Origin: Escherichia phage JEP8
Length of the DNA: 64,000 bases
Sequence record: MT764208.1
Direction: 5' to 3' (one strand)
The position numbers and the translations under genes are program-made. A model generated the notes under the pieces. The model was given only the letters and a program-made list of their open reading frames with translations, did not search any database and had not been told where the DNA came from. Of the stretch, positions 1 through 16,438 are shown one piece after another. The stretch's first letter is position 1. Every line of letters starts with the position of its first letter.

Positions 1-130
1 TATACTTTTTGTATGTACCGTGGTCGGCGTCATCCGCATTAAAGCAGACTACCTTATGACCTGCTTTAGCCCATTCTAGCCCCATTATCCCCGATCCGTC
101 AAAGTTGCAGAATATTAATTTTTGTTTCAT
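1..130 (-). CDS. hypothetical protein, partial (N-terminal 43 codons only; runs off window start)
   Basis: ATG at 128-130 overlaps the TGA of the upstream ORF (ATGA coupling); N-terminus ...NFDGSGIMG... is a glycine-rich loop; product not identifiable. Confidence 0.3.
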   Translation of the reverse strand, partial: MKQKLIFCNFDGSGIMGLEWAKAGHKVVCFNADDADHGTYKKY

Positions 131-372
131 ATACGACCCTTTAACCCAGCACAGATTTTAGTCGGTTCTTTACCGTGCCACATTAAGTAAAGTCCGTTAA
201 TGCGACCTTGTTTTGTGTGTGATTCTTTTCTGATCTTCTTATAGTGTCGTGCTTCCTCAACCGATTGTTTAGAATACCAATCATAAAGGAAGAGGCACAA
301 AGGCCAACCATTAGCGGCCTTAATGCAGTTATTAAGAAATTCCTTATTGCGTTTAATTAATTTTCTTTTCAC
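127..372 (-). CDS. hypothetical small early protein (81 aa)
   Basis: minus-strand ORF, abuts neighbouring ORFs in the same orientation. Confidence 0.45.
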   Translation of the reverse strand: MKRKLIKRNKEFLNNCIKAANGWPLCLFLYDWYSKQSVEEARHYKKIRKESHTKQGRINGLYLMWHGKEPTKICAGLKGRI

Positions 373-620
373 GCTGCCCCCATTGGTTTGATAGTAACAG
401 AATCTAAAAGACCTTTGTTAGCCAGTTCGCGGCAAGTTTTCAGATCCGCAACTTCCCAGCCAGCCGCAATCAGGTTATCAATCAGGCTGTTAGCAACTTC
501 TTCGCTCATGAAAGAGCACTGTTTGCCGATGGTGTAGCGTACACGCTGTAATTTCAGTTTACGGAAGCCTTTAACGTTCAGGTCTTTAGCGATTTTCTTT
601 GCGGTTTCGATGTTAGCCAT
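369..620 (-). CDS. hypothetical small early protein (83 aa)
   Basis: ORF preceded by conserved GGAGAATC RBS and promoter cassette at 661-689. Confidence 0.55.
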   Translation of the reverse strand: MANIETAKKIAKDLNVKGFRKLKLQRVRYTIGKQCSFMSEEVANSLIDNLIAAGWEVADLKTCRELANKGLLDSVTIKPMGAA

Positions 621-660
621 TGTTTGATTCTCCTAAGTGGTATCTCGTCTTGATGGTTGT

Positions 661-689
661 ATTGTAGGGGAGTTATCCTCCCCTGTCAA
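661..689 (-). promoter_or_regulatory. early sigma70-type promoter TTGACA-N17-TACAAT with palindromic spacer
   Basis: spacer GGGGAGGATAACTCCCC; A/T-rich tract upstream; drives 369..620. Confidence 0.6.
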
Positions 690-703
690 CACTTTTTATA
701 AAA

Positions 704-871
704 TTATTTGTTAATTTCTGGTGCGTTGCTAGGATAGTAACCTTCTTTAACTCCGAGGTATTTCGCAACCATCCCTACAATCTTCTGTGCTACTACAATG
801 TCAAATTTCAGATAATCTTCGCCGTGGGTTTCAATGATATATGCTTCACATGCTGCTTTAGTCTCGAACAT
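704..871 (-). CDS. hypothetical 55-aa protein, copy 1 of a duplicated gene (MFETKAACEAYIIETHGEDYLKFDIVVAQKIVGMVAKYLGVKEGYYPSNAPEINK)
   Basis: below the 60-aa track cutoff; hand-translated; near-identical to 3962..4129; RBS and promoter cassette upstream. Confidence 0.5.
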   Translation of the reverse strand: MFETKAACEAYIIETHGEDYLKFDIVVAQKIVGMVAKYLGVKEGYYPSNAPEINK

Positions 872-904
872 TTTGATTCTCCTATTTCGTTTCGGTATGT
901 GTGT

Positions 905-933
905 ATTATAGGGGATCTCCCGATCCCCGTCAA
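905..933 (-). promoter_or_regulatory. early promoter TTGACG-N17-TATAAT with palindromic spacer GGGATCGGGAGATCCCC
   Basis: consensus hexamers, 17-bp spacing; drives 704..871. Confidence 0.65.
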
Positions 934-947
934 CAACTTTTTTAAAA

Positions 948-1229
948 TTATTCGTGATTAGTTTCGATGTTGTGCATTTTGCACCAATTCAGCCAATCAC
1001 CCAGATCCTGATAGTTAATGCTTTTATCTGCTGCCATCGTTTTTGTCTTGATACCCATATGTGCGTTATGAGTAAGCATTTTTACAGTGAACTCAATTTT
1101 ATCGCCTTTAGCTTTAACATCAACCAGTTTGGTCCACTGGCTACCAGCGCCGCGAATGTTCATACCAACGATGTTTCCGATGTATGCTTCTTTGTTTTTC
1201 AGGATTTCGGTTGCTTTGATGAATTTCAT
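948..1229 (-). CDS. hypothetical small early protein (93 aa)
   Basis: ORF with upstream promoter cassette (1263-1291) and RBS. Confidence 0.5.
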   Translation of the reverse strand: MKFIKATEILKNKEAYIGNIVGMNIRGAGSQWTKLVDVKAKGDKIEFTVKMLTHNAHMGIKTKTMAADKSINYQDLGDWLNWCKMHNIETNHE

Positions 1230-1262
1230 TTTTGATTCTCCAGTTCGTTTCGGTATGGGTGT

Positions 1263-1291
1263 ATTATGCTATGTTCTTACTTTGGTGTCAA
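1263..1291 (-). promoter_or_regulatory. early promoter TTGACA-N17-CATAAT
   Basis: consensus -35, 17-bp spacer; drives 948..1229. Confidence 0.55.
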
Positions 1292-1299
1292 CAACTTTT

Positions 1300-1569
1300 T
1301 TAGATATTTTCAGAAATAAATTTTAAAACTTGACGTAAATGTTTCTCATCTTTGATAGTCGCCGGAAGTTCTTCTTTTACTTCCTGTGCAAGATAGATAT
1401 TTCCGTTCCAAGTGAAAGATCCGTCTTCGTTTACGCGATAGCTGAACATCCACTCGCAATCATTTTCGATTTCATATACACACAGAAGAGTGTAATCTTC
1501 AAAGCTATTGAGTTCAAGGTCGAAGCCGTGACGTTTTGCAAAGTTGGTAGTGGTTTTAGTCAGTGCCAT
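1300..1569 (-). CDS. hypothetical small early protein (89 aa)
   Basis: ORF with upstream promoter cassette (1610-1638) and RBS. Confidence 0.5.
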   Translation of the reverse strand: MALTKTTTNFAKRHGFDLELNSFEDYTLLCVYEIENDCEWMFSYRVNEDGSFTWNGNIYLAQEVKEELPATIKDEKHLRQVLKFISENI

Positions 1570-1609
1570 TGTTTGATTCTCCTAAGTGGTATCTCGTTTC
1601 GATGTGTGT

Positions 1610-1638
1610 ATTATGCTATAGGCGTGATCTGGTGTCAA
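1610..1638 (-). promoter_or_regulatory. early promoter TTGACA-N17-CATAAT
   Basis: drives 1300..1569. Confidence 0.55.
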
Positions 1639-1660
1639 TGCCTTTTTTAAAATTTTATGC

Positions 1661-1689
1661 AATAAAAAAGCCGACACTAAGGTCGGCTA
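1661..1689 (-). terminator. intrinsic terminator after 1696..2004
   Basis: hairpin AGCCGAC-N6-GTCGGCT followed by T6 on the minus strand. Confidence 0.6.
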
Positions 1690-1695
1690 ATAAAA

Positions 1696-2004
1696 TCATT
1701 TAGACAAATAATCATTCTGTGCAATCCGGTCGGCGTATGCTGGTGTTATGTCAATCGCCAGCACTTTAACGCGTGCTTTCTTGCGACCTGGGTTTTCTCG
1801 TAACCAGTGCTCATGGCCGTGAACATTTTTATACTGCGATGCTTCTTCGAAGGTACGGATCGGACCTGGGTAATCAGCGTAAAGGATCTCTAGATCTTCG
1901 GTGATGTAAAAATATACATCGTAATTGCTGTTCTCTAGCTTAAGCAGAGACTTTCGGAACATTGGGAGATTTTCGCGGGTAAATTCAAAGATATTATCTT
2001 TCAT
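1696..2004 (-). CDS. hypothetical protein, member 1 of a six-member paralog family (H-x-H-W ... V-L-A-[VI]-D-[VI] motif)
   Basis: shares ordered motifs Y-x-Y-[IV]-x-E/D, HxHW and VLA(V/I)D(V/I) with 2422, 2705, 3426, 4198, 4757; terminator hairpin downstream. Confidence 0.55.
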   Translation of the reverse strand: MKDNIFEFTRENLPMFRKSLLKLENSNYDVYFYITEDLEILYADYPGPIRTFEEASQYKNVHGHEHWLRENPGRKKARVKVLAIDITPAYADRIAQNDYLSK

Positions 2005-2052
2005 AGTATTATCCTCAATAGTTGGATGAAAAGGGGCTTAACGCCCCGTATA

Positions 2053-2340
2053 TTAAAACAGTCCTTCCTGTACACCGTAGTAGAGTTCATCGCTGATAAT
2101 TTCATTAATGCGACGGTGTGCATATTCCTGATTTGCGAAGTTGTCAGCAAGTTCTACTTTAGTTTCGCCGTCATGAGTCCATTTAGTGATAACTTTACCA
2201 TCGGCAAATTTGAAGTTGAACTCTTTAGCTACCGCATCGCGTACCAGACGTGCGAACTTGTTGTTACGGATTGCATTATCGGTTTCGTGTGCAGCGTGAG
2301 CAAATTTGTTAACTTTCAGAGTGATGGTGATGTATGCCAT
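2053..2340 (-). CDS. hypothetical small early protein (95 aa)
   Basis: ORF with promoter cassette 2387-2415 and RBS; AKEFN segment weakly shared with 5346..5657. Confidence 0.5.
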   Translation of the reverse strand: MAYITITLKVNKFAHAAHETDNAIRNNKFARLVRDAVAKEFNFKFADGKVITKWTHDGETKVELADNFANQEYAHRRINEIISDELYYGVQEGLF

Positions 2341-2386
2341 AATTTGATTCTCCTAGTTAGAAAGTGTATCTCGTTTCGATGGGTGT

Positions 2387-2415
2387 ATTATGCTATACAC
2401 CCGATCTTATGTCAA
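2387..2415 (-). promoter_or_regulatory. early promoter TTGACA-N17-CATAAT
   Basis: drives 2053..2340. Confidence 0.55.
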
Positions 2416-2421
2416 CACTTT

Positions 2422-2700
2422 TTATAAAATAATTTTTTGATATTTTTCTATGATGTTTGTGTAGGTCACATCAACCGCGAGCACCGTTGCTTCGAATCCA
2501 CCGTTTAGCCAATGGCTATGATCGTGATCGTTAAAGAAACCGAGGCCAGTGCGAAGACCTTCTTTATATTCGGCGCGTACATTCAGTTTGTCGTCGATAA
2601 ACAGATAAAACCATGAATTTTTACTAGGATTGATGATACAACCTTTCAGATTAGGGAGAATATCACGACTAAGAATAAACTTATCACCTACTTTGAACAT
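2422..2700 (-). CDS. hypothetical protein, paralog family member 2
   Basis: start trimmed to ATG at 2700 (MFKVGDKF...), preceded by GAGGA; motif HDHSHW...VLAVDV. Confidence 0.55.
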   Translation of the reverse strand: MFKVGDKFILSRDILPNLKGCIINPSKNSWFYLFIDDKLNVRAEYKEGLRTGLGFFNDHDHSHWLNGGFEATVLAVDVTYTNIIEKYQKIIL

Positions 2701-2704
2701 AATA

Positions 2705-3025
2705 TTAGTCCTCACTTATAAGGTCAAACCAATTGTTTTTCGCATAATGCTTAATGCGTGCTTGATCTGCTTCCGCTGGTGATAGATTCCATGCAACCAC
2801 TACAACTTCTGACGCATCGTCATCCGTTTTTGATACCCAATGATTGTGATTCATACAGTTATTTGCTATCGAGTGAGCAAATGATTTCATCACTGGAGAC
2901 GTATAATCATAGTAACGGATTTTCAGATTTTCATCAACATACAAGTAGATCGTATACGGCTTATATTCAGTAACCAATAACAGACAGTTACGCAATTCTG
3001 GGAAAATCTTTTTAGTTAATTTCAT
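2705..3025 (-). CDS. hypothetical protein, paralog family member 3
   Basis: motif NHNHW...VVVVAW; same length class and orientation as other members. Confidence 0.5.
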   Translation of the reverse strand: MKLTKKIFPELRNCLLLVTEYKPYTIYLYVDENLKIRYYDYTSPVMKSFAHSIANNCMNHNHWVSKTDDDASEVVVVAWNLSPAEADQARIKHYAKNNWFDLISED

Positions 3026-3239
3026 ATTCTAGTTCTCCGTAATACACAGTAATCCATTTTTCTTCATACTTTGTATCTTTCCAACACACAATCCCGTTTA
3101 CTGTGCAATCTTTGGAATTGACGAATGATTCATATTGTTCTGCATCTTCCATCATTGCATGAGCGGTCTTTTCATCGAATATATCGCAGATCGCTTTATA
3201 TGCTCGATAATCTTTAAATTTGCTCATAATTAACACCAC
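3012..3239 (-). CDS. hypothetical protein, MSKFK tandem paralog A
   Basis: N-terminus MSKFKDYRAY and central IVCWK shared with adjacent 3230..3445. Confidence 0.5.
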   Translation of the reverse strand: MVLIMSKFKDYRAYKAICDIFDEKTAHAMMEDAEQYESFVNSKDCTVNGIVCWKDTKYEEKWITVYYGELEYEIN

Positions 3240-3445
3240 TCAAGAGTTTTTGAAAACACATCTATCCATTGTTGAGTATATGCGGTTTCTTTCCATGACA
3301 CAATACCAGTCGAATAATGGTTTTTGTTTCCAGAAAAGGACGGGCATTTTGATGCATCTTCCATCATCTTTTCGGCGAACTCTGGTGCGTATACTCGCAA
3401 AATCTGTTGATATGCTTTGTATTCTTTAAATTTGCTCATAATCAT
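3230..3445 (-). CDS. hypothetical protein, MSKFK tandem paralog B
   Basis: N-terminus MSKFKEYKAY and central IVSWK; tandem to 3012..3239. Confidence 0.5.
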   Translation of the reverse strand: MIMSKFKEYKAYQQILRVYAPEFAEKMMEDASKCPSFSGNKNHYSTGIVSWKETAYTQQWIDVFSKTLEWC

Positions 3446-3704
3446 TCACTACCTTATCAGCTTCTTTTGTTGTTTTTACATCAACTGCGATAACTCGTAA
3501 AGGTTCGTCATGGTTCCACCAGTGGTCATGAATATCGGCTTGTGATTTATCACCAAAGGAATCACGAATATCATTTTTACATTTATAGCTAATGTGACCG
3601 TCATAGTCAACATAAAGGTAATTATCGAAAATCGGCGTTTTTAAGATCATACCGAAAAATCTTTCTTTGTGTGTCTTATCCAGCGTTGCAGTAATTCGCA
3701 TCAT
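3426..3704 (-). CDS. hypothetical protein, paralog family member 4
   Basis: motif HDHWW...VIAVDV. Confidence 0.55.
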   Translation of the reverse strand: MMRITATLDKTHKERFFGMILKTPIFDNYLYVDYDGHISYKCKNDIRDSFGDKSQADIHDHWWNHDEPLRVIAVDVKTTKEADKVVNDYEQI

Positions 3705-3716
3705 AATATATTCCTC

Positions 3717-3896
3717 TTAGAAAGGGATGGTCATTTCTTGAGCTTGTATGTTCTCGTTAGGATTAAACTTCATCCAACCGATATTGTCTACCAGCATATT
3801 TACATTTTTATCATATCCTACGTGAGTAGTCAACACTAAATGTGCTTTACCTTCAACGATGATTTCCATGTACTTCTGAACTTCGATAGCTTTCAT
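3717..3896 (-). CDS. hypothetical 59-aa protein
   Basis: hand-translated (MKAIEVQKYMEIIVEGK...); conserved RBS and promoter cassette 3930-3958 upstream. Confidence 0.45.
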   Translation of the reverse strand: MKAIEVQKYMEIIVEGKAHLVLTTHVGYDKNVNMLVDNIGWMKFNPNENIQAQEMTIPF

Positions 3897-3929
3897 TTTT
3901 GATTCTCCGTTTGTTGTCTTGATGGGAGT

Positions 3930-3958
3930 ATCTTACTACTCCCTTTAATCATTGTCAA
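3930..3958 (-). promoter_or_regulatory. early promoter TTGACA-N17-TAAGAT with GGGAGTAGTAAGATACTCCC hairpin
   Basis: drives 3717..3896; palindrome overlaps -10. Confidence 0.5.
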
Positions 3959-3961
3959 CTA

Positions 3962-4129
3962 TTATTTGTTAATTTCTGGTGCGTTGCTTGGATAGTAACC
4001 TTCTTTAACACCCAGATATTTTGCAACCATTCCGGTGATCTTCTGTGCTACTACGATATCGAATTTCAGGTAGTCTTCACCGTGGTTTGCTACAATGTAT
4101 GCTTCGCATTCTGCTTTAGTCGGGAACAT
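3962..4129 (-). CDS. hypothetical 55-aa protein, copy 2 of duplicated gene
   Basis: track ORF trimmed to internal ATG (MFPTKAECEAYIVANHGEDYLKFDIVVAQKITGMVAKYLGVKEGYYPSNAPEINK); about 85-90 percent nt identity to 704..871 by eye. Confidence 0.5.
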   Translation of the reverse strand: MFPTKAECEAYIVANHGEDYLKFDIVVAQKITGMVAKYLGVKEGYYPSNAPEINK

Positions 4130-4163
4130 TTTTGATTCTCCTATATCTCGTTGGTATGTGTGC

Positions 4164-4192
4164 ATTATAGGGGATCACCGATCCCCTGTCAA
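4164..4192 (-). promoter_or_regulatory. early promoter TTGACA-N17-TATAAT with palindromic spacer GGGGATCGGTGATCCCC
   Basis: drives 3962..4129. Confidence 0.65.
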
Positions 4193-4197
4193 CAACT

Positions 4198-4491
4198 TTA
4201 TAATGCTTTATATGCGTATTTCATAAATTTGTCTGCCACTTCATTGGCATGTTCAGCTTCTACGCCTGATTCGAGAACAATAGCTAGGTCGGTTTCGTCA
4301 TTCCCGCCGTACCAATGATTTGATGTTCGATTTTTTTCAATTGGAAATTGGTCACTTTTATCTGTGCGACAAAATACATCTAAATGCTCGTCGATGTAAA
4401 AGATCCAATCTTCATAAAGAATAACGGTATTAGCCAGATTTTTATTGCCTTCAACGAAAGGTTCGGCTACAAACAAATTAGTATGTTCCAT
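4198..4491 (-). CDS. hypothetical protein, paralog family member 5
   Basis: start trimmed to ATG 4491 (GAGGA upstream); motif SNHWYGG...LAIVLE. Confidence 0.5.
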   Translation of the reverse strand: MEHTNLFVAEPFVEGNKNLANTVILYEDWIFYIDEHLDVFCRTDKSDQFPIEKNRTSNHWYGGNDETDLAIVLESGVEAEHANEVADKFMKYAYKAL

Positions 4492-4507
4492 AGTAATTTC
4501 CTCAAAA

Positions 4508-4699
4508 TTATACAGCTTCGTAAACTTCCCAATGTCCAACACCAGCACGCTTAACGAAAAGGTTTTCTTTGATGTTATTCATAAACGTCTGGATGGATTT
4601 AATGCGGTTTGAAGGTTTCCATTCTTCGTTGGCATTGCGTCGATACATCATAACATTACCAGTTCGCTTATATTCAGCAACCATTTTAAGACCACACAT
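4508..4699 (-). CDS. hypothetical small protein (63 aa)
   Basis: ORF between family members; putative promoter 4751-4778 upstream. Confidence 0.4.
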   Translation of the reverse strand: MCGLKMVAEYKRTGNVMMYRRNANEEWKPSNRIKSIQTFMNNIKENLFVKRAGVGHWEVYEAV

Positions 4700-4750
4700 A
4701 ATATTATCCTCAATTTGTGGGAGAGTATTACCCCTCCCAATGATTGTTAT

Positions 4751-4778
4751 GTTATATCACACAAAATGGCGTGTCAAT
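4751..4778 (-). promoter_or_regulatory. putative early promoter TTGACA-N16-TATAAC
   Basis: weaker -10; upstream of 4508..4699. Confidence 0.35.
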
Positions 4779-5077
4779 GCTTCTTTTGCGGTTCCGCTAA
4801 GACTTTCGATCTCGCCTGGCATAACATCAACCGCCAGAACTTCTACAACATCCTCGGACCCTAACCAGTGAGTATGACCTTTGTAGAACTTGATAACCAG
4901 ACTACCTTCCTCGTCCCATTTAACGCTATCGCTAGCCCACCACACATCACCGTCGATAAAGTTGATGTAAAGCACACTACGCCACATTGAATTAATTACT
5001 TTCAATACTGCGCCTTTCATCTCTTCCACGGTATGGTCTTCCATTTTGAAGACCTCACCTACCTGAACTTTTGCCAT
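4757..5077 (-). CDS. hypothetical protein, paralog family member 6
   Basis: motif GHTHWLG...VLAVDV. Confidence 0.55.
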   Translation of the reverse strand: MAKVQVGEVFKMEDHTVEEMKGAVLKVINSMWRSVLYINFIDGDVWWASDSVKWDEEGSLVIKFYKGHTHWLGSEDVVEVLAVDVMPGEIESLSGTAKEALTRHFV

Positions 5078-5094
5078 TTAGTCACCTCTCTTTA

Positions 5095-5274
5095 TTACAT
5101 AACAATCACGCCAGCCGTTGAAAGTTGATGTTTCAACTGAGCATTTTCTGCTACCGTCAAATCAATGATTTCTTGTGACGCTGCAATCATATATCCATTG
5201 GTGATATTGTTTTGCATCAGTTCAATGGTTTCTTCGTTGTAGCGGATTTTAGCGATGATTTCGTTGAAGTTCAT
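5095..5274 (-). CDS. hypothetical 59-aa protein
   Basis: track ORF trimmed: N-terminal MLTGDHRSPIL is read-through of the promoter cassette; real start MNFNEII... after GGAGAATC. Confidence 0.45.
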   Translation of the reverse strand: MNFNEIIAKIRYNEETIELMQNNITNGYMIAASQEIIDLTVAENAQLKHQLSTAGVIVM

Positions 5275-5308
5275 GATTGATTCTCCTAGTTCGTTTCGGT
5301 ATGTGTGT

Positions 5309-5337
5309 AGTATAGGGGATCGGTGATCCCCTGTCAA
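5309..5337 (-). promoter_or_regulatory. early promoter TTGACA-N17-TATACT with palindromic spacer GGGGATCACCGATCCCC
   Basis: drives 5095..5274. Confidence 0.6.
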
Positions 5338-5345
5338 CAACTTTT

Positions 5346-5657
5346 TTAAAGTTTTTCCATGATAACGGTCATAATTACATCTTCTGCGCGAGCGGTCAGA
5401 TTATCAGCGTCAGCATGTGGGCGGTTGGTTGTTACAGAGATAACACCGTTGCGCACTGGTTTGATATTGATATCAAGATGATCCGCGAAACGTTCGCCAG
5501 TTACAGAATGAATTTTGGTGTTAAATTCTTTTGCCAGTGCCTTGCGAACTTCACGAATCAGGGTAGCGTTTTTCAGTTGGTTCTCCGCGCTCATGGTCTT
5601 CTGGGTGTTAATGGTTCCGTCGAAGTCAATCATTGGCAGCGTTACGATGTATTTCAT
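5346..5657 (-). CDS. hypothetical small early protein (103 aa)
   Basis: ORF with promoter cassette 5703-5731 and RBS. Confidence 0.5.
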   Translation of the reverse strand: MKYIVTLPMIDFDGTINTQKTMSAENQLKNATLIREVRKALAKEFNTKIHSVTGERFADHLDINIKPVRNGVISVTTNRPHADADNLTARAEDVIMTVIMEKL

Positions 5658-5702
5658 TTTTGATTCTCCGTTTAAGAAAGTGTGTTTCGTTTTGATGTGT
5701 GT

Positions 5703-5731
5703 AGTATAGGGGATACGTGATCCCCTGTCAA
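5703..5731 (-). promoter_or_regulatory. early promoter TTGACA-N17-TATACT with palindromic spacer GGGGATCACGTATCCCC
   Basis: drives 5346..5657. Confidence 0.6.
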
Positions 5732-5744
5732 CAACTTTTTTGAA

Positions 5745-6221
5745 TTATTTTTCTTGATGCTCGCGCTCGTACTTTTCGAAATAAAATTCTACTGGCTGGT
5801 CATGAATTGACAGCAAGCCAAAGCGTTTAGCCGCTCGCAATCCCATATTGCGCTGAATGTACTTCTGGAAGTTCTCGCGTATACACTTACGCCAGTATTC
5901 TAAGCCCATACAGCTTTTATAAAGATTGCATTGCACACACGCCGGATTCATGTTATCAAGTATATCATGCTCCGGTTTATGCATTCCTACGACCTTATAC
6001 TTCCACAATCCATCATCATTACGGGCAATTCGTCCATTTTCATCATAGACTACCTTTGAGCGTCGCAATACTGGTTTGATGTGGTCTGCGTGCCAGCGAT
6101 CCCCTAGTTCCTCGCCACAATAGGCACAACGTCCACCGTATTTCATTTTCAGGATCTGGCGTTGCTCTTTCTTTGACAATTTTTTAGGTTTAGGGGCTTT
6201 CGCCCCTTCATTATCACACAT
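5745..6221 (-). CDS. HNH-family endonuclease (free-standing)
   Basis: C-x2-C ... H-A-D-H-I-K-P ... C-V-Q-C-N signature; directly downstream of ligase; true start may be internal Met (MKYGGR...). Confidence 0.6.
   Translation of the reverse strand: MCDNEGAKAPKPKKLSKKEQRQILKMKYGGRCAYCGEELGDRWHADHIKPVLRRSKVVYDENGRIARNDDGLWKYKVVGMHKPEHDILDNMNPACVQCNLYKSCMGLEYWRKCIRENFQKYIQRNMGLRAAKRFGLLSIHDQPVEFYFEKYEREHQEK
6192..6207 (-). promoter_or_regulatory. RNA stem-loop GGGGCGAAAGCCCC (GAAA tetraloop) at the ligase 3' end
   Basis: same element as at 18921-18936 and 31041-31056. Confidence 0.45.
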
Positions 6222-7710
6222 CGAATACCTCTTTTACTGTATTTGCAGTGGTCTTGTCGTAGCGAATACGTTTGATGATTGGGAGAAATAAAGAGAACTC
6301 CGGTTCATCTTCTTTACGTGATTTGCTGCGAATGTACCCGTTGCATGTCATCTCAATGACTTTTCCAATCAGGTTATGACGGTCAGCCCATAACATTTCT
6401 CGGTCGAGTTCATTTCGACTATCGAACGGAATTACACGTTCGATACCATCATCACCTTTTTCGGTTGTGGTGTCGGTCAATCCCGATCCGGTGTTAGTCA
6501 TCATTCGTCCGCACGCACTACGGACAGTAAAACCGCCTACCTTATTAGGATCTTTACTATGCGGATATACATCAACAATTTCCGCGTCGAAGTCAATCAC
6601 TTCTTTAAATTTAACCTGATCTTTACTGCGACGATCTTCAAATACACCATGCAGATTTTTAAGGATAATACCTTCTAATCCCATGTTTACATAGCGATGA
6701 TATACTTCGCGAGCTTCATCGAGATTGTTAACTACGGTATTTTCGATTATCTGAACACGAGGATCGTTAAGTTCTTCAACAATCTGTTTTAGTTCTTCGA
6801 ATCGATCTTTATACTGCTTCGTTGCTTTCTCGTTACCGTAGTACACATCACGGTCGATAACATCCCAGACAGTGTAAACAATACATTGGGCTTCTTCTTT
6901 TGGAATAGTTCCTTTCAGTGATTTGTTGAGGATACCATTTCCGGTCTGACGATCTGCAACAACGGATTCTTTCACTGCTTCCGCTACTGGCGTTAATGGC
7001 ATTTCCTCTTCTTCAAATATCCATGACAGAGTACCATCATAAACGCTCTCAACGAAGTTCTGCGCTGGTGTTTGCGAAAGGGTAGGCATATATACCAATT
7101 CGCCATCTAGAACAATTCCACGGCCTCGTAGACGCTCTAAAACCGCAAACAAATCATCAAGCCCTTGATAGGTATTACCTGAGCGGGTATAGATTGCTAA
7201 TGTTTCCCCGTCAATATCAGCCATACCACGAGCGCCATCGCTTTTAAGTTGTGCATACGCCGGATACTTGATATTAGCAATAGTCTTATCAGAACATGAC
7301 GATGCAAGGTGGCACGGTTGCTGAGGGATCAGTTTCTTCCATACCTTGTTTGCAGTGGTAGCGGAACAGCCGCATTCCAGATCACGATTCAGGACCATCA
7401 TTGCAACTTTAGCATCATCCTCTGACAAGCAAGTCAGAGTATCGGTAACTAGTTGTAATGCTGCATTACCAGTTACTTGACGCGTGGCAAGTTTATTTTT
7501 AAAGACCTGTAATGCACCGGATAAAGACAATACAGACGAATAGCGAGATGGTTTATCGTATTTCTTTACGCCAAACGTAACCTGTTTGCAATATGCCAGA
7601 TAAAAGCATTCTTTCAGCGTTTCATTGCTCGCGGATTCTTTCAGAATCTTTTCTTTCAGCGATGTTTTGTCTGTTGCTGCAAGCTGATTAATGATATTAA
7701 GAATTGACAT
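6214..7710 (-). CDS. 30: ATP-dependent DNA ligase (T4 gp30 homolog)
   Basis: clear similarity along the length to T4 DNA ligase as recalled (KADGAR lysine motif, C-terminal LEGIILKN, KFKEVID); track start is GTG, trimmed to ATG 7710 preceded by GAGGTGA. Confidence 0.9.
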   Translation of the reverse strand: MSILNIINQLAATDKTSLKEKILKESASNETLKECFYLAYCKQVTFGVKKYDKPSRYSSVLSLSGALQVFKNKLATRQVTGNAALQLVTDTLTCLSEDDAKVAMMVLNRDLECGCSATTANKVWKKLIPQQPCHLASSCSDKTIANIKYPAYAQLKSDGARGMADIDGETLAIYTRSGNTYQGLDDLFAVLERLRGRGIVLDGELVYMPTLSQTPAQNFVESVYDGTLSWIFEEEEMPLTPVAEAVKESVVADRQTGNGILNKSLKGTIPKEEAQCIVYTVWDVIDRDVYYGNEKATKQYKDRFEELKQIVEELNDPRVQIIENTVVNNLDEAREVYHRYVNMGLEGIILKNLHGVFEDRRSKDQVKFKEVIDFDAEIVDVYPHSKDPNKVGGFTVRSACGRMMTNTGSGLTDTTTEKGDDGIERVIPFDSRNELDREMLWADRHNLIGKVIEMTCNGYIRSKSRKEDEPEFSLFLPIIKRIRYDKTTANTVKEVFDV

Positions 7711-8176
7711 TTTCACCTCGTTTTGTTAAACGTTCACGAATATCATTGAGGATACTACAAAATTCCGATTCAGTCAATATAGTCTTTAACGGATCAGTTC
7801 CACCTATACTATGACGCAATTTCTTATTTCCGGTAGCGAGTAATGCTTTACAAAATTCTGGGTTATTCCGTGCCATCGTAACAAATGCCAGATGTACCAG
7901 TCTGTAATAATGCTCACTCATTCGATGAATCGGGCGACCCTGAAAATATAACATGTGATTCTCTATCTTTTCGGTCCTTCCGGTTCTTTTTGCTTTGCCA
8001 CCGTGCATCAAAAAGATTTCTCTTTGTCTCTGAGGGTTCTTAAATCTTAGCCCCTGTAAAAATCCTTCTGTGCTGTTAATATCGCAACCAAATAGACGGA
8101 ATGGTCTTTTATTGAAATTACTCAATTCACCCGATGGATAAGGTCCACCCGCATAGATATCAATTTCAGAAGTCAT
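7697..8176 (-). CDS. NADAR-domain protein (YbiA-like)
   Basis: GELSNFN...F...STEGFLQGLRFK...ALLATGNKKL pattern matches YbiA/NADAR family segments. Confidence 0.6.
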   Translation of the reverse strand: MTSEIDIYAGGPYPSGELSNFNKRPFRLFGCDINSTEGFLQGLRFKNPQRQREIFLMHGGKAKRTGRTEKIENHMLYFQGRPIHRMSEHYYRLVHLAFVTMARNNPEFCKALLATGNKKLRHSIGGTDPLKTILTESEFCSILNDIRERLTKRGENVNS

Positions 8177-8330
8177 TGAAACTAATCTCGCTAATCAGAG
8201 AGAACGGATCATAATCGTCACTAGGAATATCGATAGTAATCGAGTGAGGGTTTACCCATACACCAAACTGGTCTTCTTCGGTGAATACTTCGGTATGGAT
8301 TTCGTGGATGTTTACATTCATAGTTTTCAT
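8166..8330 (-). CDS. hypothetical 54-aa protein
   Basis: hand-translated; stop overlaps the NADAR start (translational coupling). Confidence 0.35.
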   Translation of the reverse strand: MKTMNVNIHEIHTEVFTEEDQFGVWVNPHSITIDIPSDDYDPFSLISEISFNDF

Positions 8331-8369
8331 AATAAAATTCCTTAATAATCAATAACTTACAAAATCATA

Positions 8370-8402
8370 TAGCCAAAATATAGGCGGGATTATTACCCGC
8401 CG
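8370..8402 (-). terminator. intrinsic terminator after gene 31
   Basis: hairpin GGCGGGTAATAATCCCGCC followed by TATATTTT. Confidence 0.55.
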
Positions 8403-8412
8403 TTTAAAATCA

Positions 8413-8736
8413 TTAACCGTAAACTACCACAATATTCTGTTTGTGCGTTACAGTCCATTTCAGGTCGATCTCTTCTTCCTTCTTAACGCCGTTAATAACG
8501 TCTGGATGAGGAACTTTATTCATCTTTCCATGTGGCAGTAAAACAGTTTTACCCAGCAATTCTTTATCTACCGTCTCGCCAATATCAATAATCTTACCTA
8601 CCAGCGGAATCTCACCCATAGTGCGCTTTTGCTCAATAATGATCCCCATAGAGCTTTTTACTTCGGTCCCTGCGCTTTCTGCTTTAGCTTCGATAATTAC
8701 ATAATCACCAAGTGCTTTAGGAGTTTTAACGGTCAT
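8413..8736 (-). CDS. 31: co-chaperonin GroES-like (T4 gp31 homolog)
   Basis: 107 aa, GroES-like pattern (LGDYVII...G.IIDIGE), position between ligase and cd as in T4. Confidence 0.75.
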   Translation of the reverse strand: MTVKTPKALGDYVIIEAKAESAGTEVKSSMGIIIEQKRTMGEIPLVGKIIDIGETVDKELLGKTVLLPHGKMNKVPHPDVINGVKKEEEIDLKWTVTHKQNIVVVYG

Positions 8737-8777
8737 AATTTTATTACCTCTTCAAATCAATACAGTTTAATGATGAA

Positions 8778-9076
8778 TTATTTATAAATTTCGACGATCT
8801 GCGCTGGAGTCAGCCCGTCTACATTAATCAGACTATCAAGCCCAAAACTACGGAAACCTTCAACTGCAATTTCATATACTGGCAAAGATGTTTCTGATTC
8901 TTTACGCGGTTTCTCAACATTCGGAACTAACCACTTTTCGTATGTTTCGAAAGGCATCAGTGCCGGATCTCGCGGACAGTACCATCTTTCTTAGTAAACT
9001 GCAAAGAGTGAGTACCGACCGAAAACATTTTCTTTAGTGCTTCACGAAGTGCGATATTATCAATTTGTTCCGTCAT
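8778..9076 (-). CDS. two overlapping small ORFs (39 aa, 8957..9076; 59 aa, 8778..8957) joined by a TGATG overlap
   Basis: hand-translated; could be two coupled genes or one frameshifted gene. Confidence 0.3.
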
Positions 9077-9575
9077 TATCAATACCCTTCAAATCAGTCA
9101 ATAATGCTTTTGGAATACGCGTAACCGTAATATCGGCATTATTCAGAATATCAGCCCAATCACGCCCACCATTTCGATCATATGTGTCGCAGTAATATAT
9201 GTGTTTAATACCACTGTTTGCAATTGCTTTAGCGCAATCTGGACATGGTGAAGCAGTACACCACATACTAGCGCCTTCAATCGACACACCGCTACGGGCA
9301 GCAAACAAAATAGCATTTAATTCAGCGTGGATCTCGTTTTTCTGCGACCATGCACTATGCTCTGGTCGTTTTTCTGGGATCATTTTGCCTTCATCATCCA
9401 GCCAACCGCTTTTATGTGCATGACAGCTACAGTTTTCTTGCCCTGCTGGAGTGCCGTTAAATCCAGTAGAAATGATTCGCCCGTCTTTTTCGATCAGTGC
9501 GCCTACCTTCCACGAAACACATTTAGAGTTCTTTGCGATTAGATAAGCGATCTGCATGTAAGTTTGTGACAACAT
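9060..9575 (-). CDS. cd: dCMP deaminase
   Basis: zinc-binding H-A-E-x-N-A and P-C-x2-C motifs; T4 cd position. Confidence 0.9.
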   Translation of the reverse strand: MLSQTYMQIAYLIAKNSKCVSWKVGALIEKDGRIISTGFNGTPAGQENCSCHAHKSGWLDDEGKMIPEKRPEHSAWSQKNEIHAELNAILFAARSGVSIEGASMWCTASPCPDCAKAIANSGIKHIYYCDTYDRNGGRDWADILNNADITVTRIPKALLTDLKGIDNDGTN

Positions 9576-9596
9576 AATATAATCCTCACATATTAA

Positions 9597-9800
9597 TTAA
9601 CCGTATACGCGAAAGTATTCTACTGATCCGTCGCTATACTGTTTTACATTGAATGTATTCACACCATGACCATTGCTCATAATGACATATACACTACGAC
9701 GCTCATCGCTAAACGGGTTAACTGGTGCGGGTTCAATTTCAACATTAAAACCACGTTTAGCAAGTGCTTCGCCCAATTGCTTGAGTTTATCGGTAAACAT
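9597..9800 (-). CDS. hypothetical small protein (67 aa)
   Basis: ORF between pseT and cd, same orientation. Confidence 0.45.
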   Translation of the reverse strand: MFTDKLKQLGEALAKRGFNVEIEPAPVNPFSDERRSVYVIMSNGHGVNTFNVKQYSDGSVEYFRVYG

Positions 9801-10678
9801 TAAAAGTCTCCGTAGTTAACCTGAAAACATTCTACACCAATTGCGCGGTACATGTCAACCACTTGATCACGGTCATCTACTGCCAACACAACATGATAAC
9901 GCGGTGCAATTTCAGAGAAGAAAATCTCTTTCTTCACTTCATGGTCAGGACGACGATCATTAGTTTCACGTTGAAAGTGAACACTAGGTTCAATACCCTG
10001 TTCACGCAACCATTGCAGAGTATCTTCTTCGCAAACATCCTCACGCCCTGAGCATGTAATGATACGATAGCCATTATCACGATACAGTTTAAGCATTTCG
10101 ATCACTTGCGGACGTGGTTTATCTTCTTTGACCTTTGTCCAGTCAAACGGATGACGACCGCCCTTATCCGCTAATGTCCCATCAATATCAAAGATCACTG
10201 CCTTTGGCAGCATGGTATTCGGTTTGTATACTTCTTGACCCATATATTCCTGCATCAGATAAAATTGGTTACGCAAATGAGAAAGTGGGATTGCTTTCTC
10301 TCCACGATAGAAATTACGTTTCTTTAGTGTCTCGAATGATTCATTGAACACTTGTTCAGTATACACCGCGTTAAATTCTTTTGCAAGTTCTTTGTAGAAT
10401 ACACGATGTTTTTCTTTCAGGTTAGTATCAGAGATAATGATACTTAATCCGCGTGATAGAGTCTCACGAGCAATCATTCTCTGAATAGACTCTACCAGCT
10501 TTTCTTTTTCCTTAGTATACTTGTATTTCAAATGTGAGTCAACACCAAACAACATAAGACGAAGGTCATCACGATTAACATTACGATAATTACTAAACCG
10601 TTTACATGTCTCCATAGCCCATGTAGTTTTACCGGACCCAGAACAACCAACGGTTAAAATCACTTCACATTTCGGCAT
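9800..10678 (-). CDS. pseT: polynucleotide 5'-kinase / 3'-phosphatase
   Basis: N-terminal P-loop GCSGSGKTT and C-terminal HAD motif DIDGTLAD; track start GTG trimmed to ATG 10678 (TAATG overlap with upstream gene). Confidence 0.9.
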   Translation of the reverse strand: MPKCEVILTVGCSGSGKTTWAMETCKRFSNYRNVNRDDLRLMLFGVDSHLKYKYTKEKEKLVESIQRMIARETLSRGLSIIISDTNLKEKHRVFYKELAKEFNAVYTEQVFNESFETLKKRNFYRGEKAIPLSHLRNQFYLMQEYMGQEVYKPNTMLPKAVIFDIDGTLADKGGRHPFDWTKVKEDKPRPQVIEMLKLYRDNGYRIITCSGREDVCEEDTLQWLREQGIEPSVHFQRETNDRRPDHEVKKEIFFSEIAPRYHVVLAVDDRDQVVDMYRAIGVECFQVNYGDF

Positions 10679-11010
10679 TATTTCTCCTTCGGTTTGCACC
10701 GTTCCTCATTAAGTTCTTTGCGATAATAACACATGATCAACTTACTTTCAAGTGTATATCTCTTAATATCCGCAAGCCAGACTCTGAATTTTTGGGAGTC
10801 CTCCCACGACATAGAAACTCTAGGTTTACCGTCTATTGTATCCACTTTCAGGTCAATGTCAACTTTTTCTATTGGTGCTGGTAGTGGAGGATGTAATTTC
10901 GGTTCCTGTGAATAATAGTCCATTGTACACGAAGAAAGCGCAAATACAATAGGCACAGCGAAGACATGGATTATGGCGGTCTGAAAATTCTTATGTGCTT
11001 TCTTAAACAT
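10678..11010 (-). CDS. putative outer-membrane spanin (lipoprotein, Rz1-like)
   Basis: trimmed to MFKKAHK...; lipoprotein signal peptide with lipobox LSSC; follows a TM/coiled-coil gene; next to pseT where I recall the T4 spanins mapping. Confidence 0.5.
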   Translation of the reverse strand: MFKKAHKNFQTAIIHVFAVPIVFALSSCTMDYYSQEPKLHPPLPAPIEKVDIDLKVDTIDGKPRVSMSWEDSQKFRVWLADIKRYTLESKLIMCYYRKELNEERCKPKEK

Positions 11011-11126
11011 CCAGTGTATCACGAAAATTGAAAACACCATCAGGATAATAATGCTTGCACCTATCCACAGATAATCAACCAGATTAAAATGGCTTATCTG
11101 CTCTTGTGTAGGCAATATTTCTATGC

Positions 11127-11450
11127 TCATTTAGTAGCCTCCTTTAATTCTTCGGTAAACTCCTTAAATGAGTCATTAAGCTGTTTCTCTACCAACTTGG
11201 GTTTTTGTGCGACTACATAGCCTCGTGTAGCGTCTTTCATTGCTTTGTTTTGTTCTTCTGCAAACTTAGTTCTTATCCCGTACATCTCCTTTTGTAGTGA
11301 GTCTACGACCTTCATCTTTTCATCTGTCTTTTTCTTATACTCTGTAAATTCCTGATTCAGTCGATCTACCTCCTTTTTATTTTCCCACCACATATTTCCA
11401 CCTACCCCCAGCAACACAGAGATGATAACAATGTATATCAGCTTTGACAT
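11127..11450 (-). CDS. putative inner-membrane spanin (Rz-like)
   Basis: trimmed to ATG 11450 (MSKLIYIVIISVLLGVGG...): N-terminal TM segment then charged coiled-coil; track start is TTG. Confidence 0.5.
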   Translation of the reverse strand: MSKLIYIVIISVLLGVGGNMWWENKKEVDRLNQEFTEYKKKTDEKMKVVDSLQKEMYGIRTKFAEEQNKAMKDATRGYVVAQKPKLVEKQLNDSFKEFTEELKEATK

Positions 11451-11470
11451 ATTACCCCCAACGACAAAAG

Positions 11471-11488
11471 GCGGGGAACTAGCCCCGC
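11471..11488 (-). terminator. stem-loop / putative terminator after gene 63
   Basis: hairpin GCGGGGCTAGTTCCCCGC followed by CTTTTGT. Confidence 0.4.
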
Positions 11489-11494
11489 TTATTA

Positions 11495-12664
11495 TTACCA
11501 ATCAATCTTATCAGCCGGAATCAGTTTCTTATAATTCCGTAGATAGTAAGTTTTCATTGAATCCAGAATACGGTCATAATCAAGACCATCAAATGCAATC
11601 ATCAGACACATGAAAATATATGCTTGTGCATCACCATGTTTACGCGATTCGATAGTCGCATTGGATGCATATGTCTTTCTATCTTCACCCGCGTGTGCGT
11701 TATAAAACTCTGTTGCTGTCGTAAAGGCATTGCGAAGAATAGACCTGAATGCTTCCTCGAATAGCTCGATTCGTTCCAGTGCTTCCGGTTCGCCTTCATA
11801 TGCAGCACGCAAATCATCGGTTTCGCTTTCTACGACATAGTAGATCAGGTTATTAGGAAACATCGATGTGTTTTTAATGTTATGCACACCAATATACCAT
11901 TCACTCTTCACTTTGAACAGTTGACCGTCTTTAGTGCGTGCAACAATTCCTTCGATACCTTCTGCGGTCCGAACTTCATCAAGAATATTGCTAAAACGCG
12001 CTGAATCAACCTGTAACGCATTTACCAGATGAGGACGTAGGATTGAATCGGCGAATAGCATTTGATGCGGTACATACTCTCCTGTGACGTTATGGCGTAC
12101 ATTCAGAAGTGTTAGCGACGGTTCAGAATATTCTACAACAATTCGGTTGCTGGGTGCTGTATATTCAAAGTTGAAAGTATAATCAGACCCAATATCGGCG
12201 ATCTTAGCGCGTAGATCCGCATACTTCTCGGAATACAGAAGACCGTTTGCTCTCTCTGCCTGGCTTGAGTATAAGGCCGCTTTAGACTTCAACTGAACAT
12301 AGCCGTTATCAATGTATGTGCTTACTAGACTACCGTCCATTTTGTCCATGACCATTTCCACATCTTCCGGCTTAAAGCGAGCGCGATCATTCTCGCCTAA
12401 ATTAAAAAACTTCTCCATAGGACGAGATGCAATGCGGACCGGACTACCTTTATCGTCAATTTCAAACATGATCCCGCGACACTCTAACGCATCTGGTTTA
12501 TTCCACATTTCCGGTTTGCTCAAGTACAGATAACTAAAAATGCGCATACGGGTTTGCATCGCCGTAATTTCATCTTTGTAATAGAACGTATCAGATCCGT
12601 CACATAGTGCCATCAGATTTTTGAACAATGCTAAAACTTTTTTGTTGTTTTCTTTTGTTGACAT
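11495..12664 (-). CDS. 63: RNA ligase 1 / tail-fibre attachment protein (T4 gp63 homolog)
   Basis: PDALECRGIMFE...PVRIASRPMEKFFNL and downstream blocks match T4 Rnl1 as recalled. Confidence 0.9.
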   Translation of the reverse strand: MSTKENNKKVLALFKNLMALCDGSDTFYYKDEITAMQTRMRIFSYLYLSKPEMWNKPDALECRGIMFEIDDKGSPVRIASRPMEKFFNLGENDRARFKPEDVEMVMDKMDGSLVSTYIDNGYVQLKSKAALYSSQAERANGLLYSEKYADLRAKIADIGSDYTFNFEYTAPSNRIVVEYSEPSLTLLNVRHNVTGEYVPHQMLFADSILRPHLVNALQVDSARFSNILDEVRTAEGIEGIVARTKDGQLFKVKSEWYIGVHNIKNTSMFPNNLIYYVVESETDDLRAAYEGEPEALERIELFEEAFRSILRNAFTTATEFYNAHAGEDRKTYASNATIESRKHGDAQAYIFMCLMIAFDGLDYDRILDSMKTYYLRNYKKLIPADKIDW

Positions 12665-13061
12665 AATTTGTGTTCCATTCTGGTTTAAATTTTGTGATCA
12701 AAACAGGTTCTTCGATATCGGCAGTGCTTATAATATCCTTACCCGTTGGATTCTCAATATATAACTCAAAGCACTGGCGGTAATAGAATGTTACTGTCTT
12801 ACCTTCCTCTAGCGCCTTATGAATATTCTTACTCTTGCGAGTATCCGCTGTTGGTGTTTGTCTGTTAATGCTAGTCCGGTAATAGTTGATCCGCTTTCTG
12901 AGATTGACAGTCTGACCAATGTATACCAGTTCATCATCAACTACAATAGCGTAAAGAACATTTAAACGGTTCTTCTGAGGCGGCAGAATCACATCACCAT
13001 CTTTACACTCTAAACATGAATATTTAACGAATCCATAGTTTTCTATTAGCTCATTAATCAT
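12600..13061 (-). CDS. denA: endonuclease II (GIY-YIG family)
   Basis: NVLYAIVVDDELVYIGQTVNLRKRINYYR closely matches T4 EndoII; upstream of nrdB as in T4. Confidence 0.85.
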   Translation of the reverse strand: MINELIENYGFVKYSCLECKDGDVILPPQKNRLNVLYAIVVDDELVYIGQTVNLRKRINYYRTSINRQTPTADTRKSKNIHKALEEGKTVTFYYRQCFELYIENPTGKDIISTADIEEPVLITKFKPEWNTNYVNKRKQQKSFSIVQKSDGTM

Positions 13062-13077
13062 TATCCTTTCCTCACGT

Positions 13078-13105
13078 CACAACAAAGGCGGGATTTCTCC
13101 CGCCC
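13078..13105 (-). terminator. putative terminator after 13112..13510
   Basis: hairpin GGCGGGAGAAATCCCGCC followed by TTTGTTGT. Confidence 0.45.
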
Positions 13106-13111
13106 ACCTTA

Positions 13112-13510
13112 TTAACTTTCCAGAATATCGCGAGCTTCGTTACGCTCCTTGATGATTTTCAGGACAAATTCCAGTTTTTCTTTGTTCAGTGTTCCATTTT
13201 CCATTGCTTCTTTGACGGTAAACACTCCGCCACCTTGCCCGTATACAGTGACAGTGATTTCACCTAACATCGTAGTATGAAAACCGCCAATTTTCGGTGA
13301 TTCGAAAGAAACAATTACCTCGCGGACAGTATTACCGTCGTTGATTTCTGAGAGGGTAATGTCGTTTTTGTAGGCGGTTGCTTTAACCATACGGATCAGC
13401 ATAGTCTGATCTGGGGAGATGGTCATTTTGTCCATTGCATGTTGCAATGCAGCGTAACCGAAAACTTTAACGAAGTCCAGAACGTCTTTGCGAGTTTGAA
13501 ATTTAATCAT
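13112..13510 (-). CDS. hypothetical protein (132 aa)
   Basis: ORF followed by a terminator hairpin at 13087-13104. Confidence 0.5.
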   Translation of the reverse strand: MIKFQTRKDVLDFVKVFGYAALQHAMDKMTISPDQTMLIRMVKATAYKNDITLSEINDGNTVREVIVSFESPKIGGFHTTMLGEITVTVYGQGGGVFTVKEAMENGTLNKEKLEFVLKIIKERNEARDILES

Positions 13511-13543
13511 CTTGATACTCCTTAGTTGTTTTGGTATGGGAGT

Positions 13544-13572
13544 ATCTTACTACTCCCGTGATATGCTGTCAA
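13544..13572 (-). promoter_or_regulatory. early promoter TTGACA-N17-TAAGAT (GGGAGTAGTAAGATACTCCC type)
   Basis: upstream of 13112..13510. Confidence 0.5.
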
Positions 13573-13580
13573 CTGCTTTT

Positions 13581-13730
13581 TTATGCAACCGCAAACATCA
13601 ACATTTGAACATTCTTGGCTGTCTGGCTTTCAAAGTTCTGACATTCTTTGATAATGTCCTCTACTTTCTCGCCGGAGAACTCCGCGTAAATTTCGATTGC
13701 CATTTTCAGTACCGCGTCAAAGTTGTTCAT
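13581..13730 (-). CDS. hypothetical 49-aa protein
   Basis: hand-translated (MNNFDAVLKMAIEIYAEF...); conserved RBS and promoter cassette upstream. Confidence 0.35.
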   Translation of the reverse strand: MNNFDAVLKMAIEIYAEFSGEKVEDIIKECQNFESQTAKNVQMLMFAVA

Positions 13731-13768
13731 TTGATTCTCCTTAAAGTGTATTTCGTTTCGATGGGGGT

Positions 13769-13797
13769 ATATTACTATCCCCGTTTCATGCTGTCAA
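13769..13797 (-). promoter_or_regulatory. early promoter TTGACA-N17-TAATAT
   Basis: drives 13581..13730. Confidence 0.5.
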
Positions 13798-14016
13798 CTA
13801 CTTTTTAATGACAAGTTCGAATTTTGCTACCTTGCGTCCTCGTTTATTGAAAGCAACCCACGGACGGTTTTCAATGTAGAACAATTCTTCACCAATAATG
13901 AATATTGGCTGATTGTAAAGGCGACCCATCAGGTCACGCTGGCGAATGGTAGTAGATTCGTATACTTCGCCTACTACAAAGTGTTTGCTGATAGAGTCGG
14001 TGCAAGTAAATTTCAT
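13798..14016 (-). CDS. hypothetical small protein (72 aa)
   Basis: ORF with promoter cassette 14050-14078 and RBS. Confidence 0.5.
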   Translation of the reverse strand: MKFTCTDSISKHFVVGEVYESTTIRQRDLMGRLYNQPIFIIGEELFYIENRPWVAFNKRGRKVAKFELVIKK

Positions 14017-14049
14017 TTTGATTCTCCTTTGTTTCGTTTCGATGGGAGT

Positions 14050-14078
14050 ATCTTACTACCCCCGTTATTCAGTGTCAA
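14050..14078 (-). promoter_or_regulatory. early promoter TTGACA-N17-TAAGAT
   Basis: drives 13798..14016. Confidence 0.5.
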
Positions 14079-14085
14079 CTACTTT

Positions 14086-14304
14086 TTACTTGTTGTATTC
14101 ATTCCACCATTGGGTGAGCTTATCAATTATTTTTGTGTTTCTATCCAACTTCTCCCACCGTTTTCTAGGGTTTATCAACCGGAATAGGTAAGGTGTACTT
14201 GTTAAGTGAATTTGGTCAATGTAGTGATTGATGTACTGCTTTTCGATTCTAAGTTTCATCTTTTTACGATGAAAATATGCAATGACTTGTTCTTCTGTTT
14301 CCAT
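14086..14304 (-). CDS. hypothetical small protein (72 aa)
   Basis: ORF with promoter cassette 14329-14357. Confidence 0.45.
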   Translation of the reverse strand: METEEQVIAYFHRKKMKLRIEKQYINHYIDQIHLTSTPYLFRLINPRKRWEKLDRNTKIIDKLTQWWNEYNK

Positions 14305-14328
14305 ATGTTCCTCCGTTTCGATGTGTGT

Positions 14329-14357
14329 ATTATGCTATGGCAAGATCAGATTGTCAA
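14329..14357 (-). promoter_or_regulatory. early promoter TTGACA-N17-CATAAT
   Basis: drives 14086..14304. Confidence 0.55.
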
Positions 14358-14365
14358 CACCCAAT

Positions 14366-14395
14366 AACAAAAAAGTCGCCATTATGGGCGACTTT
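14366..14395 (-). terminator. intrinsic terminator after HAD-like gene
   Basis: hairpin AAGTCGCC-N5-GGCGACTT followed by TTTTT. Confidence 0.6.
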
Positions 14396-14404
14396 GAACA
14401 AACA

Positions 14405-16038: not shown

Positions 16039-16053
16039 TAATTCACCTCACTA

Positions 16054-16394: not shown

Positions 16395-16438
16395 TATTCG
16401 ACAACCTCAAAGCATTTATCATCAGGAAGAATAGCCCA

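Follow-up and report, generated by a model that had tools for sequence, protein, structure and literature searches.

NADAR proteins hydrolyze the guanine-N2-ADP-ribose that is made by DarT1, and their catalytic Glu, phosphate-binding Lys, and a third acidic residue were mapped by Schuller et al. 2023 (PMC11543638). The gp30.3 proteins were set apart by De Souza and Aravind (2012), as cited in later papers, as the "phage NADAR" branch, which is recognized by a His in the last β-strand. The T4 gene 30.3 was renamed adfN (anti-DarT factor NADAR) by Johannesman et al. 2025 in Nat Commun; it is necessary and sufficient for the resistance of T-even phages to DarTG1 (PMC11825919). T4 AdfN does not bind DarT1, acts independently of DNA hypermodification, and fully works only during T-even infection, possibly needing another T-even protein (PMC11825919). 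In vitro, the T4 phage NADAR removes G-ADPr and not T-ADPr, as reported in a 2024 paper in Toxins (PMC11125620), and a 2026 paper found that it does not remove C-ADPr (PMC12945103); among the nucleic-acid substrates tested, guanosine-linked ADPr alone is hydrolyzed (PMC11125620, PMC12945103). In a transposon screen of T4, adfN was conditionally essential on DarTG1 hosts, and tk.4 (adfM, macrodomain) appeared as the anti-DarTG2 counterpart. On a K-12 strain of E. coli without DarTG1, the fitness of T4 adfN insertion mutants is not impaired.

Other NADARs differ in architecture and in the residue of the last β-strand, which is His in phage NADARs, Glu in YbiA, and Asp in DarG1 (PMC11125620, PMC11543638). 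The DarG1 NADAR (E. coli C7; G. lovleyi, PDB 8bat) is longer and encoded beside DarT1, and its N-terminal extra elements form an electropositive channel (PMC12945103). YbiA of E. coli (PDB 2b3w), compared here along with Pfam NADAR (PF08719), gives no protection from DarT1 in vivo (PMC11125620). AdfN-Bas32 and AdfN-Bas60, from T5-like and Vequintavirinae phages, are phage-encoded anti-DarTG1 NADARs as well; they were acquired independently, belong to other NADAR branches than the gp30.3 family, and need no T-even context (PMC11825919).

The gene described in this article is the T4 30.3/adfN ortholog of RB49/Phi1-type phages (Krischvirus), and its product probably removes the ADP-ribose that DarT1 places on guanine of the phage DNA. 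The family has been characterized before, GenBank lists even the RB49 protein under the name gp30.3, and the finding introduces no new principle.

Position of the 30.3 gene and its relatives

The window, i.e., the whole stretch of 64,000 nucleotides of Escherichia phage JEP8 (MT764208.1) that was analyzed, corresponds to Phi1 117884..164270 joined to 1..16561. At the DNA level, the region shares 97-98% identity with the Escherichia phages Phi1 and RB49 and with further members of Krischvirus. The features around 30.3 are as follows.

5745..6221, minus strand: HNH endonuclease (PF01844, phrog_2118)
6214..7710, minus strand: gene 30, ATP-dependent DNA ligase, 498 aa (PF01068, phrog_114, Phi1 annotation)
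7697..8176, minus strand: 30.3/adfN ortholog, 159-aa single-domain phage NADAR, predicted guanine-N2-ADP-ribosyl DNA glycohydrolase
8166..8330, minus strand: 54-aa ORF of no known function, RB49 '31.-1' (phrog_15277)
8383..8401, minus strand: putative terminator-like hairpin after gene 31, from a consensus scan alone

The 30.3 ORF starts with ATG, encodes 159 aa, and ends with TAA. The translated ORF contains each of the three segments quoted in the original prediction, i.e., GELSNFN (residues 16-22), STEGFLQGLRFK (residues 35-46), and ALLATGNKKL (residues 111-120). The placement of the ORF directly upstream of the DNA ligase gene is likewise correct on the transcribed strand, with an overlap of 14 nt that puts the ATG of the ligase at 7710. 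The Shine-Dalgarno motif GAGGTG and the ATG of the ligase sit within the last codons at the 3' end of 30.3. The ligase gene, as judged from this sequence, is translationally coupled to 30.3 via the overlap. On the other side, the 3' end of the acidic 54-aa ORF overlaps the start of 30.3 by 11 nt. Because of these overlaps, the Shine-Dalgarno motif inside 30.3, and the nearby hairpin, 30.3 is placed in a tightly packed block of 31.-1, 30.3, 30, and the HNH gene, the boundary of which is probably marked by the hairpin. The promoter scan yielded no more sites than were found in shuffled sequence.

Some further features of the neighborhood can be described. The 54-aa ORF is translationally coupled to the start of 30.3 through its 11-nt overlap, an arrangement that is kept in a 69%-identical relative (3847..4011). 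The HNH endonuclease gene lies directly downstream of the ligase with an 8-nt overlap and is probably a mobile homing-endonuclease insertion; in T4, this slot holds alt.1 and alt. Elsewhere in the window, an rnlA-like RNA ligase ORF (11495..12664, minus strand) and the upstream denA-like ORF (12600..13061, minus strand) overlap by 65 nt, as in the Phi1 annotation. An overlap of this length is unusual in coupled genes, so the start codon of rnlA may have been assigned wrongly.

The protein is 100% identical to gp30.3 of RB49 and of Phi1, and at least 59 phage records carry it at ≥95% identity, among the matches listed. By tblastn, 1,509 phage records contain a homolog, and these come almost without exception from T4-like myoviruses infecting enterobacteria, Acinetobacter, Aeromonas, and Vibrio. 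The majority of the 60 records listed out of these 1,509 are labeled "hypothetical protein"; hence, the assignment is useful for annotation.

Family, fold, and active-site residues

The protein matches the family PF08010 (Phage_30_3) with 132.5 bits against a cutoff of 36 bits (E = 1.2e-38), covering profile positions 2-138 of 138, and it also matches phrog_652 (E = 2.5e-45). The match to the gp30.3 family is thus far beyond chance. When 1.84 billion representative proteins were searched with a profile, 1,665 members were obtained at E ≤ 1e-3, and 457 of these at E ≤ 1e-30.

The assignment to the NADAR/YbiA family made in the original prediction holds at the level of the fold, and the Pfam NADAR search named there as its check formally fails: PF08719 is reached with 15.5 bits (E = 0.021), below its gathering threshold of 35.1 bits. 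At E < 0.01, PF08719 is reached by 14 of 69 gp30.3-family members, and a profile built from these 69 matches YbiA weakly among PDB sequences (E = 0.017). With the single protein, phmmer found no NADAR match among PDB sequences. Since sequence alone is insufficient for the link to the NADAR superfamily, as the E-value for YbiA illustrates, a fold comparison was needed. The modeled structure of the 30.3 protein contains the YbiA/NADAR fold, i.e., a helical core flanked by small sheets. Accordingly, the protein belongs to the sister family Phage_30_3 and not to Pfam NADAR proper; it is linked to NADAR at the fold level, and the profile-level signal is weak.

The top phmmer match in the PDB was DltA (E = 4e-4), which was rejected as compositional or due to chance since structural support was lacking. 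The gp30.3-type NADAR domain also occurs outside phages (noted for P0073, P0110, P0086, P0114, P0014, P0031, and P0058, none of which lies in the window). Long family members carry the NADAR domain fused to BspA-type leucine-rich repeats, to Lgt (prolipoprotein diacylglyceryl transferase), or to an FtsW/RodA-like membrane region, and a subgroup of ~290-aa proteins contains an internally duplicated half-domain.

The active-site elements of the protein are located as follows.

8066..8068, minus strand: codon 37 (GAA, Glu37), catalytic Glu position by pairwise alignment with T4 AdfN
8045..8047, minus strand: codon 44 (AGA, Arg44), phosphate-coordinating position, Lys in T4 (K43)
7811..7813, minus strand: codon 122 (CAT, His122), phage-NADAR His of the last β-strand
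7706..7771, minus strand: C-terminal α-helix, residues 136-157, from the secondary structure of the model at high confidence

Conservation was counted in 161 aligned gp30.3-family proteins. The position of Glu37 is occupied by Glu in 156 of them; its equivalents are E36 in T4 AdfN, E88 in the E. coli C7 NADAR, and E43 in PnNADAR (PMC11825919, PMC11543638). The E36A variant of T4 AdfN gives partial rescue only (PMC11825919). His122, which directly follows the modeled strand 119-121, is equally conserved (His in 156/161). Both residues are invariant in one further alignment, and His122 is also invariant in a second. The C-terminal helix is intact, and the alignment reaches the final residue of T4 gp30.3; this helix is needed for full activity and is lost in the naturally DarTG1-sensitive phage RB69 (PMC11825919).

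Compared with T4 AdfN, the protein aligns end to end at 38% identity. Both are PF08010 members with a single-domain NADAR core, and they share the catalytic Glu, the phage-type His, and the C-terminal helix. Both 30.3 genes lie in the early region between gene 31 and gene 30 of a T4-like myovirus of E. coli. The systems differ in that T4 AdfN has the phosphate-binding Lys (K43) where this phage has Arg, and in that T4 is a T-even phage, whereas this phage is a Krischvirus outside Tevenvirinae and lacks adfA. Furthermore, 30.3 directly overlaps the ligase gene here, unlike in T4, owing to the absence of 30.1 and 30.2.

The differences from DarG1 and YbiA are larger. In contrast to DarG1, the phage protein is an orphan, core-only NADAR of 159 aa with His in the last strand, and it shows no similarity to DarG1 detectable by phmmer. 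It has neither the last-strand Asp nor the N-terminal extension of DarG1, and no darT1 is adjacent to it; its neighbors are the 54-aa ORF and the DNA ligase gene, and no ADP-ribosyltransferase gene adjoins it. YbiA is distinguished by Glu where the phage protein has His.

Other ADP-ribosylation genes of the phage

In the window, homologs of T4 30.1, 30.2, AdfA (61.2), ModA, Alt, and Tk.4 were searched for and not found; a ModB-like ORF was the sole match. Two ORFs are herein of relevance.

55747..56250, minus strand: ModB-like ADP-ribosyltransferase, 167 aa, 33% identity to T4 ModB over 113 aa (phrog_832)
58823..59458, minus strand: 211-aa ORF of no known function between primase (gene 61) and helicase (gene 41) (phrog_16187)

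The ModB-like ORF is ~40 aa shorter than T4 ModA or ModB, and there is one mod gene here in place of the modA-modB pair of T4. The 211-aa ORF occupies the slot of T4 61.2, i.e., AdfA (208 aa). It was considered as a diverged AdfA and rejected, since BLASTP detects no similarity between the two and their PHROGs differ; it may be a positional analogue.

The same search of the complete Phi1 genome detected Alt, an Alt-like ADP-ribosyltransferase (ORF183), the ModB-like enzyme, and a homolog of the Tk.4/AdfM macrodomain, and no homolog of AdfA, 30.1, or 30.2. The Tk.4/AdfM homolog is located at Phi1 49740..50195, outside the window, and has 44% identity to T4. With AdfN and the Tk.4/AdfM homolog both present in Phi1, Krischvirus thus appears to carry both DarG-mimicking hydrolases. 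The annotation of the complete Phi1 record includes no gene 42, a-gt, or b-gt, as would fit a DNA with unmodified cytosine.

Arg44 and the proposed function

The phosphate-coordinating position 44 is Lys in 154 of the 161 family proteins and Arg in this phage, so that the basic character is retained. Arg seemingly occurs in five of the 161 proteins. Two of these, P0031 and P0058, are internally duplicated and contain a normal, intact E...K motif in the first copy, and they were rejected as true Lys-to-Arg substitutions. Therefore, a real Arg is confined to the phage clade (P0001, P0002) and to P0144, a bacterial protein encoded on a 789-kb contig. A metagenomic relative with 69% protein and 72% DNA identity keeps AGA at codon 44 and shares the synteny of rnlA, the spanins, pseT, cd, 31, the 54-aa ORF, 30.3, and the ligase gene. 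Between 30.3 and this relative, 48 synonymous and 50 nonsynonymous codon differences are counted. These counts fit a protein that is still under selection better than one in decay. Arg44 is not a recent lesion.

The following mechanism is proposed by analogy to T4 AdfN. When a DarTG1 host is infected, DarT1 would ADP-ribosylate the N2 of guanine in the phage DNA, by which replication is blocked. The diphosphate of the ADP-ribose would then be bound by Arg44, in place of the Lys found in most relatives, and the distal ribose held between Glu37 and His122 while the N-glycosidic bond is hydrolyzed. Unmodified guanine would thereby be restored and replication could continue. AdfN would hence give the phage an orphan version of the DarG1 antitoxin activity, expressed together with the DNA ligase from the tightly overlapped gene block. 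Observed here are the gene and its synteny, the family to which it belongs, the fold, and the conserved active-site residues; the enzymatic activity and the anti-DarTG1 role are inferred from the 38%-identical T4 ortholog.

A counter-measure to DarT-type defenses had been suggested in the original prediction. The published role of T4 gp30.3/AdfN (PMC11825919) together with the retained fold, Glu, His, and helix speaks for this suggestion, with the likely target narrowed to DarT1 (guanine-ADPr) and DarT2 (thymine-ADPr) set aside. Against it, the phosphate-binding Lys is replaced by Arg, and the identity to T4 is just 38%. The corresponding K95R variant of the E. coli C7 NADAR hydrolyzed G-ADPr in vitro and left cells unprotected from DarT1 (PMC11543638), and the T4 AdfN variant K43A gives partial rescue only (PMC11825919). 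In addition, T4 AdfN is fully effective only in a T-even infection (PMC11825919), whereas Krischvirus is not part of Tevenvirinae and has no 30.1, 30.2, or adfA, so that a direct transfer of the T4 function is not guaranteed. When the literature was searched for papers linking Krischvirus to DarTG, none was obtained. It is distinctly unlikely that the protein is an active NADAR with a main target other than DarT1-modified phage DNA, such as G-ADPr on RNA or YarT-like and pierisin/ScARP-like lesions, with the exchange of Lys for Arg as tuning. All NADAR families tested also clear G-ADPr from RNA (PMC12945103), further toxin-antitoxin pairs of ADP-ribosyltransferase and NADAR exist, e.g., YarT-YbiA (PMC11125620), NADARs with equal activity in vitro differ strongly in their protection in vivo (PMC11825919, PMC11125620), and Arg44 is a rare variant that is fixed in the clade. 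However, the sole demonstrated in vivo role of the gp30.3 family is directed against DarTG1, DarTG1 occurs in E. coli, to which the host belongs, and the sequence gives no pointer to a different substrate.

The exchange could also weaken the enzyme, leaving RB49-type phages DarTG1-sensitive or reliant on another factor. The loss of protection in C7 K95R, the prevalence of Lys at position 44, and the precedent of RB69 as a T4-like phage with a defective adfN allele (PMC11825919) would fit such an attenuated or nonprotective allele, which is nevertheless considered very unlikely: E37, H122, and the C-terminal helix are all retained in a gene of full length, the protein is nearly invariant among the listed phage records, and Arg is kept in the 69%-identical relative under the codon pattern described above. 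Moreover, Arg preserves the charge, and even K43A of T4 AdfN rescues partly. The second role given in the original prediction, a regulator of the phage's own ADP-ribosyltransferases, found no support. Erasure or regulation of the products of Alt, the Alt-like ORF183, and the short ModB-like enzyme could be derived from the presence of these genes in Phi1 or the window and from T4 alt adjoining gene 30. The Alt and Mod enzymes of T4, however, modify proteins on arginine. In the papers cited here, NADAR activity is reported only for the bases of nucleic acids: for guanine and, in some NADARs that do not come from phages, for cytosine (PMC11543638, PMC11125620, PMC12945103). Because of this substrate range and the normal growth of T4 adfN mutants without DarTG1, the erasure of the phage's own modifications is disfavored and appears extremely improbable.

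If the anti-DarT1 reading applies, the "orphan antitoxin" strategy against DarTG1 would extend to RB49-type phages outside Tevenvirinae, which helps to predict the host range of phages on DarTG-bearing E. coli. The rare, clade-fixed Lys-to-Arg exchange is the sole feature worth following. Speculatively, and with rather low probability, it may mark a retuned AdfN with altered kinetics or substrate range, or with independence of the T-even cofactor that T4 AdfN seems to need; RB49-type phages would then counter DarT1 or another guanine-directed ADP-ribosyltransferase in a manner measurably unlike T4. As a natural K→R variant, the protein is a ready-made test of the weight of the phosphate-binding residue in vivo.
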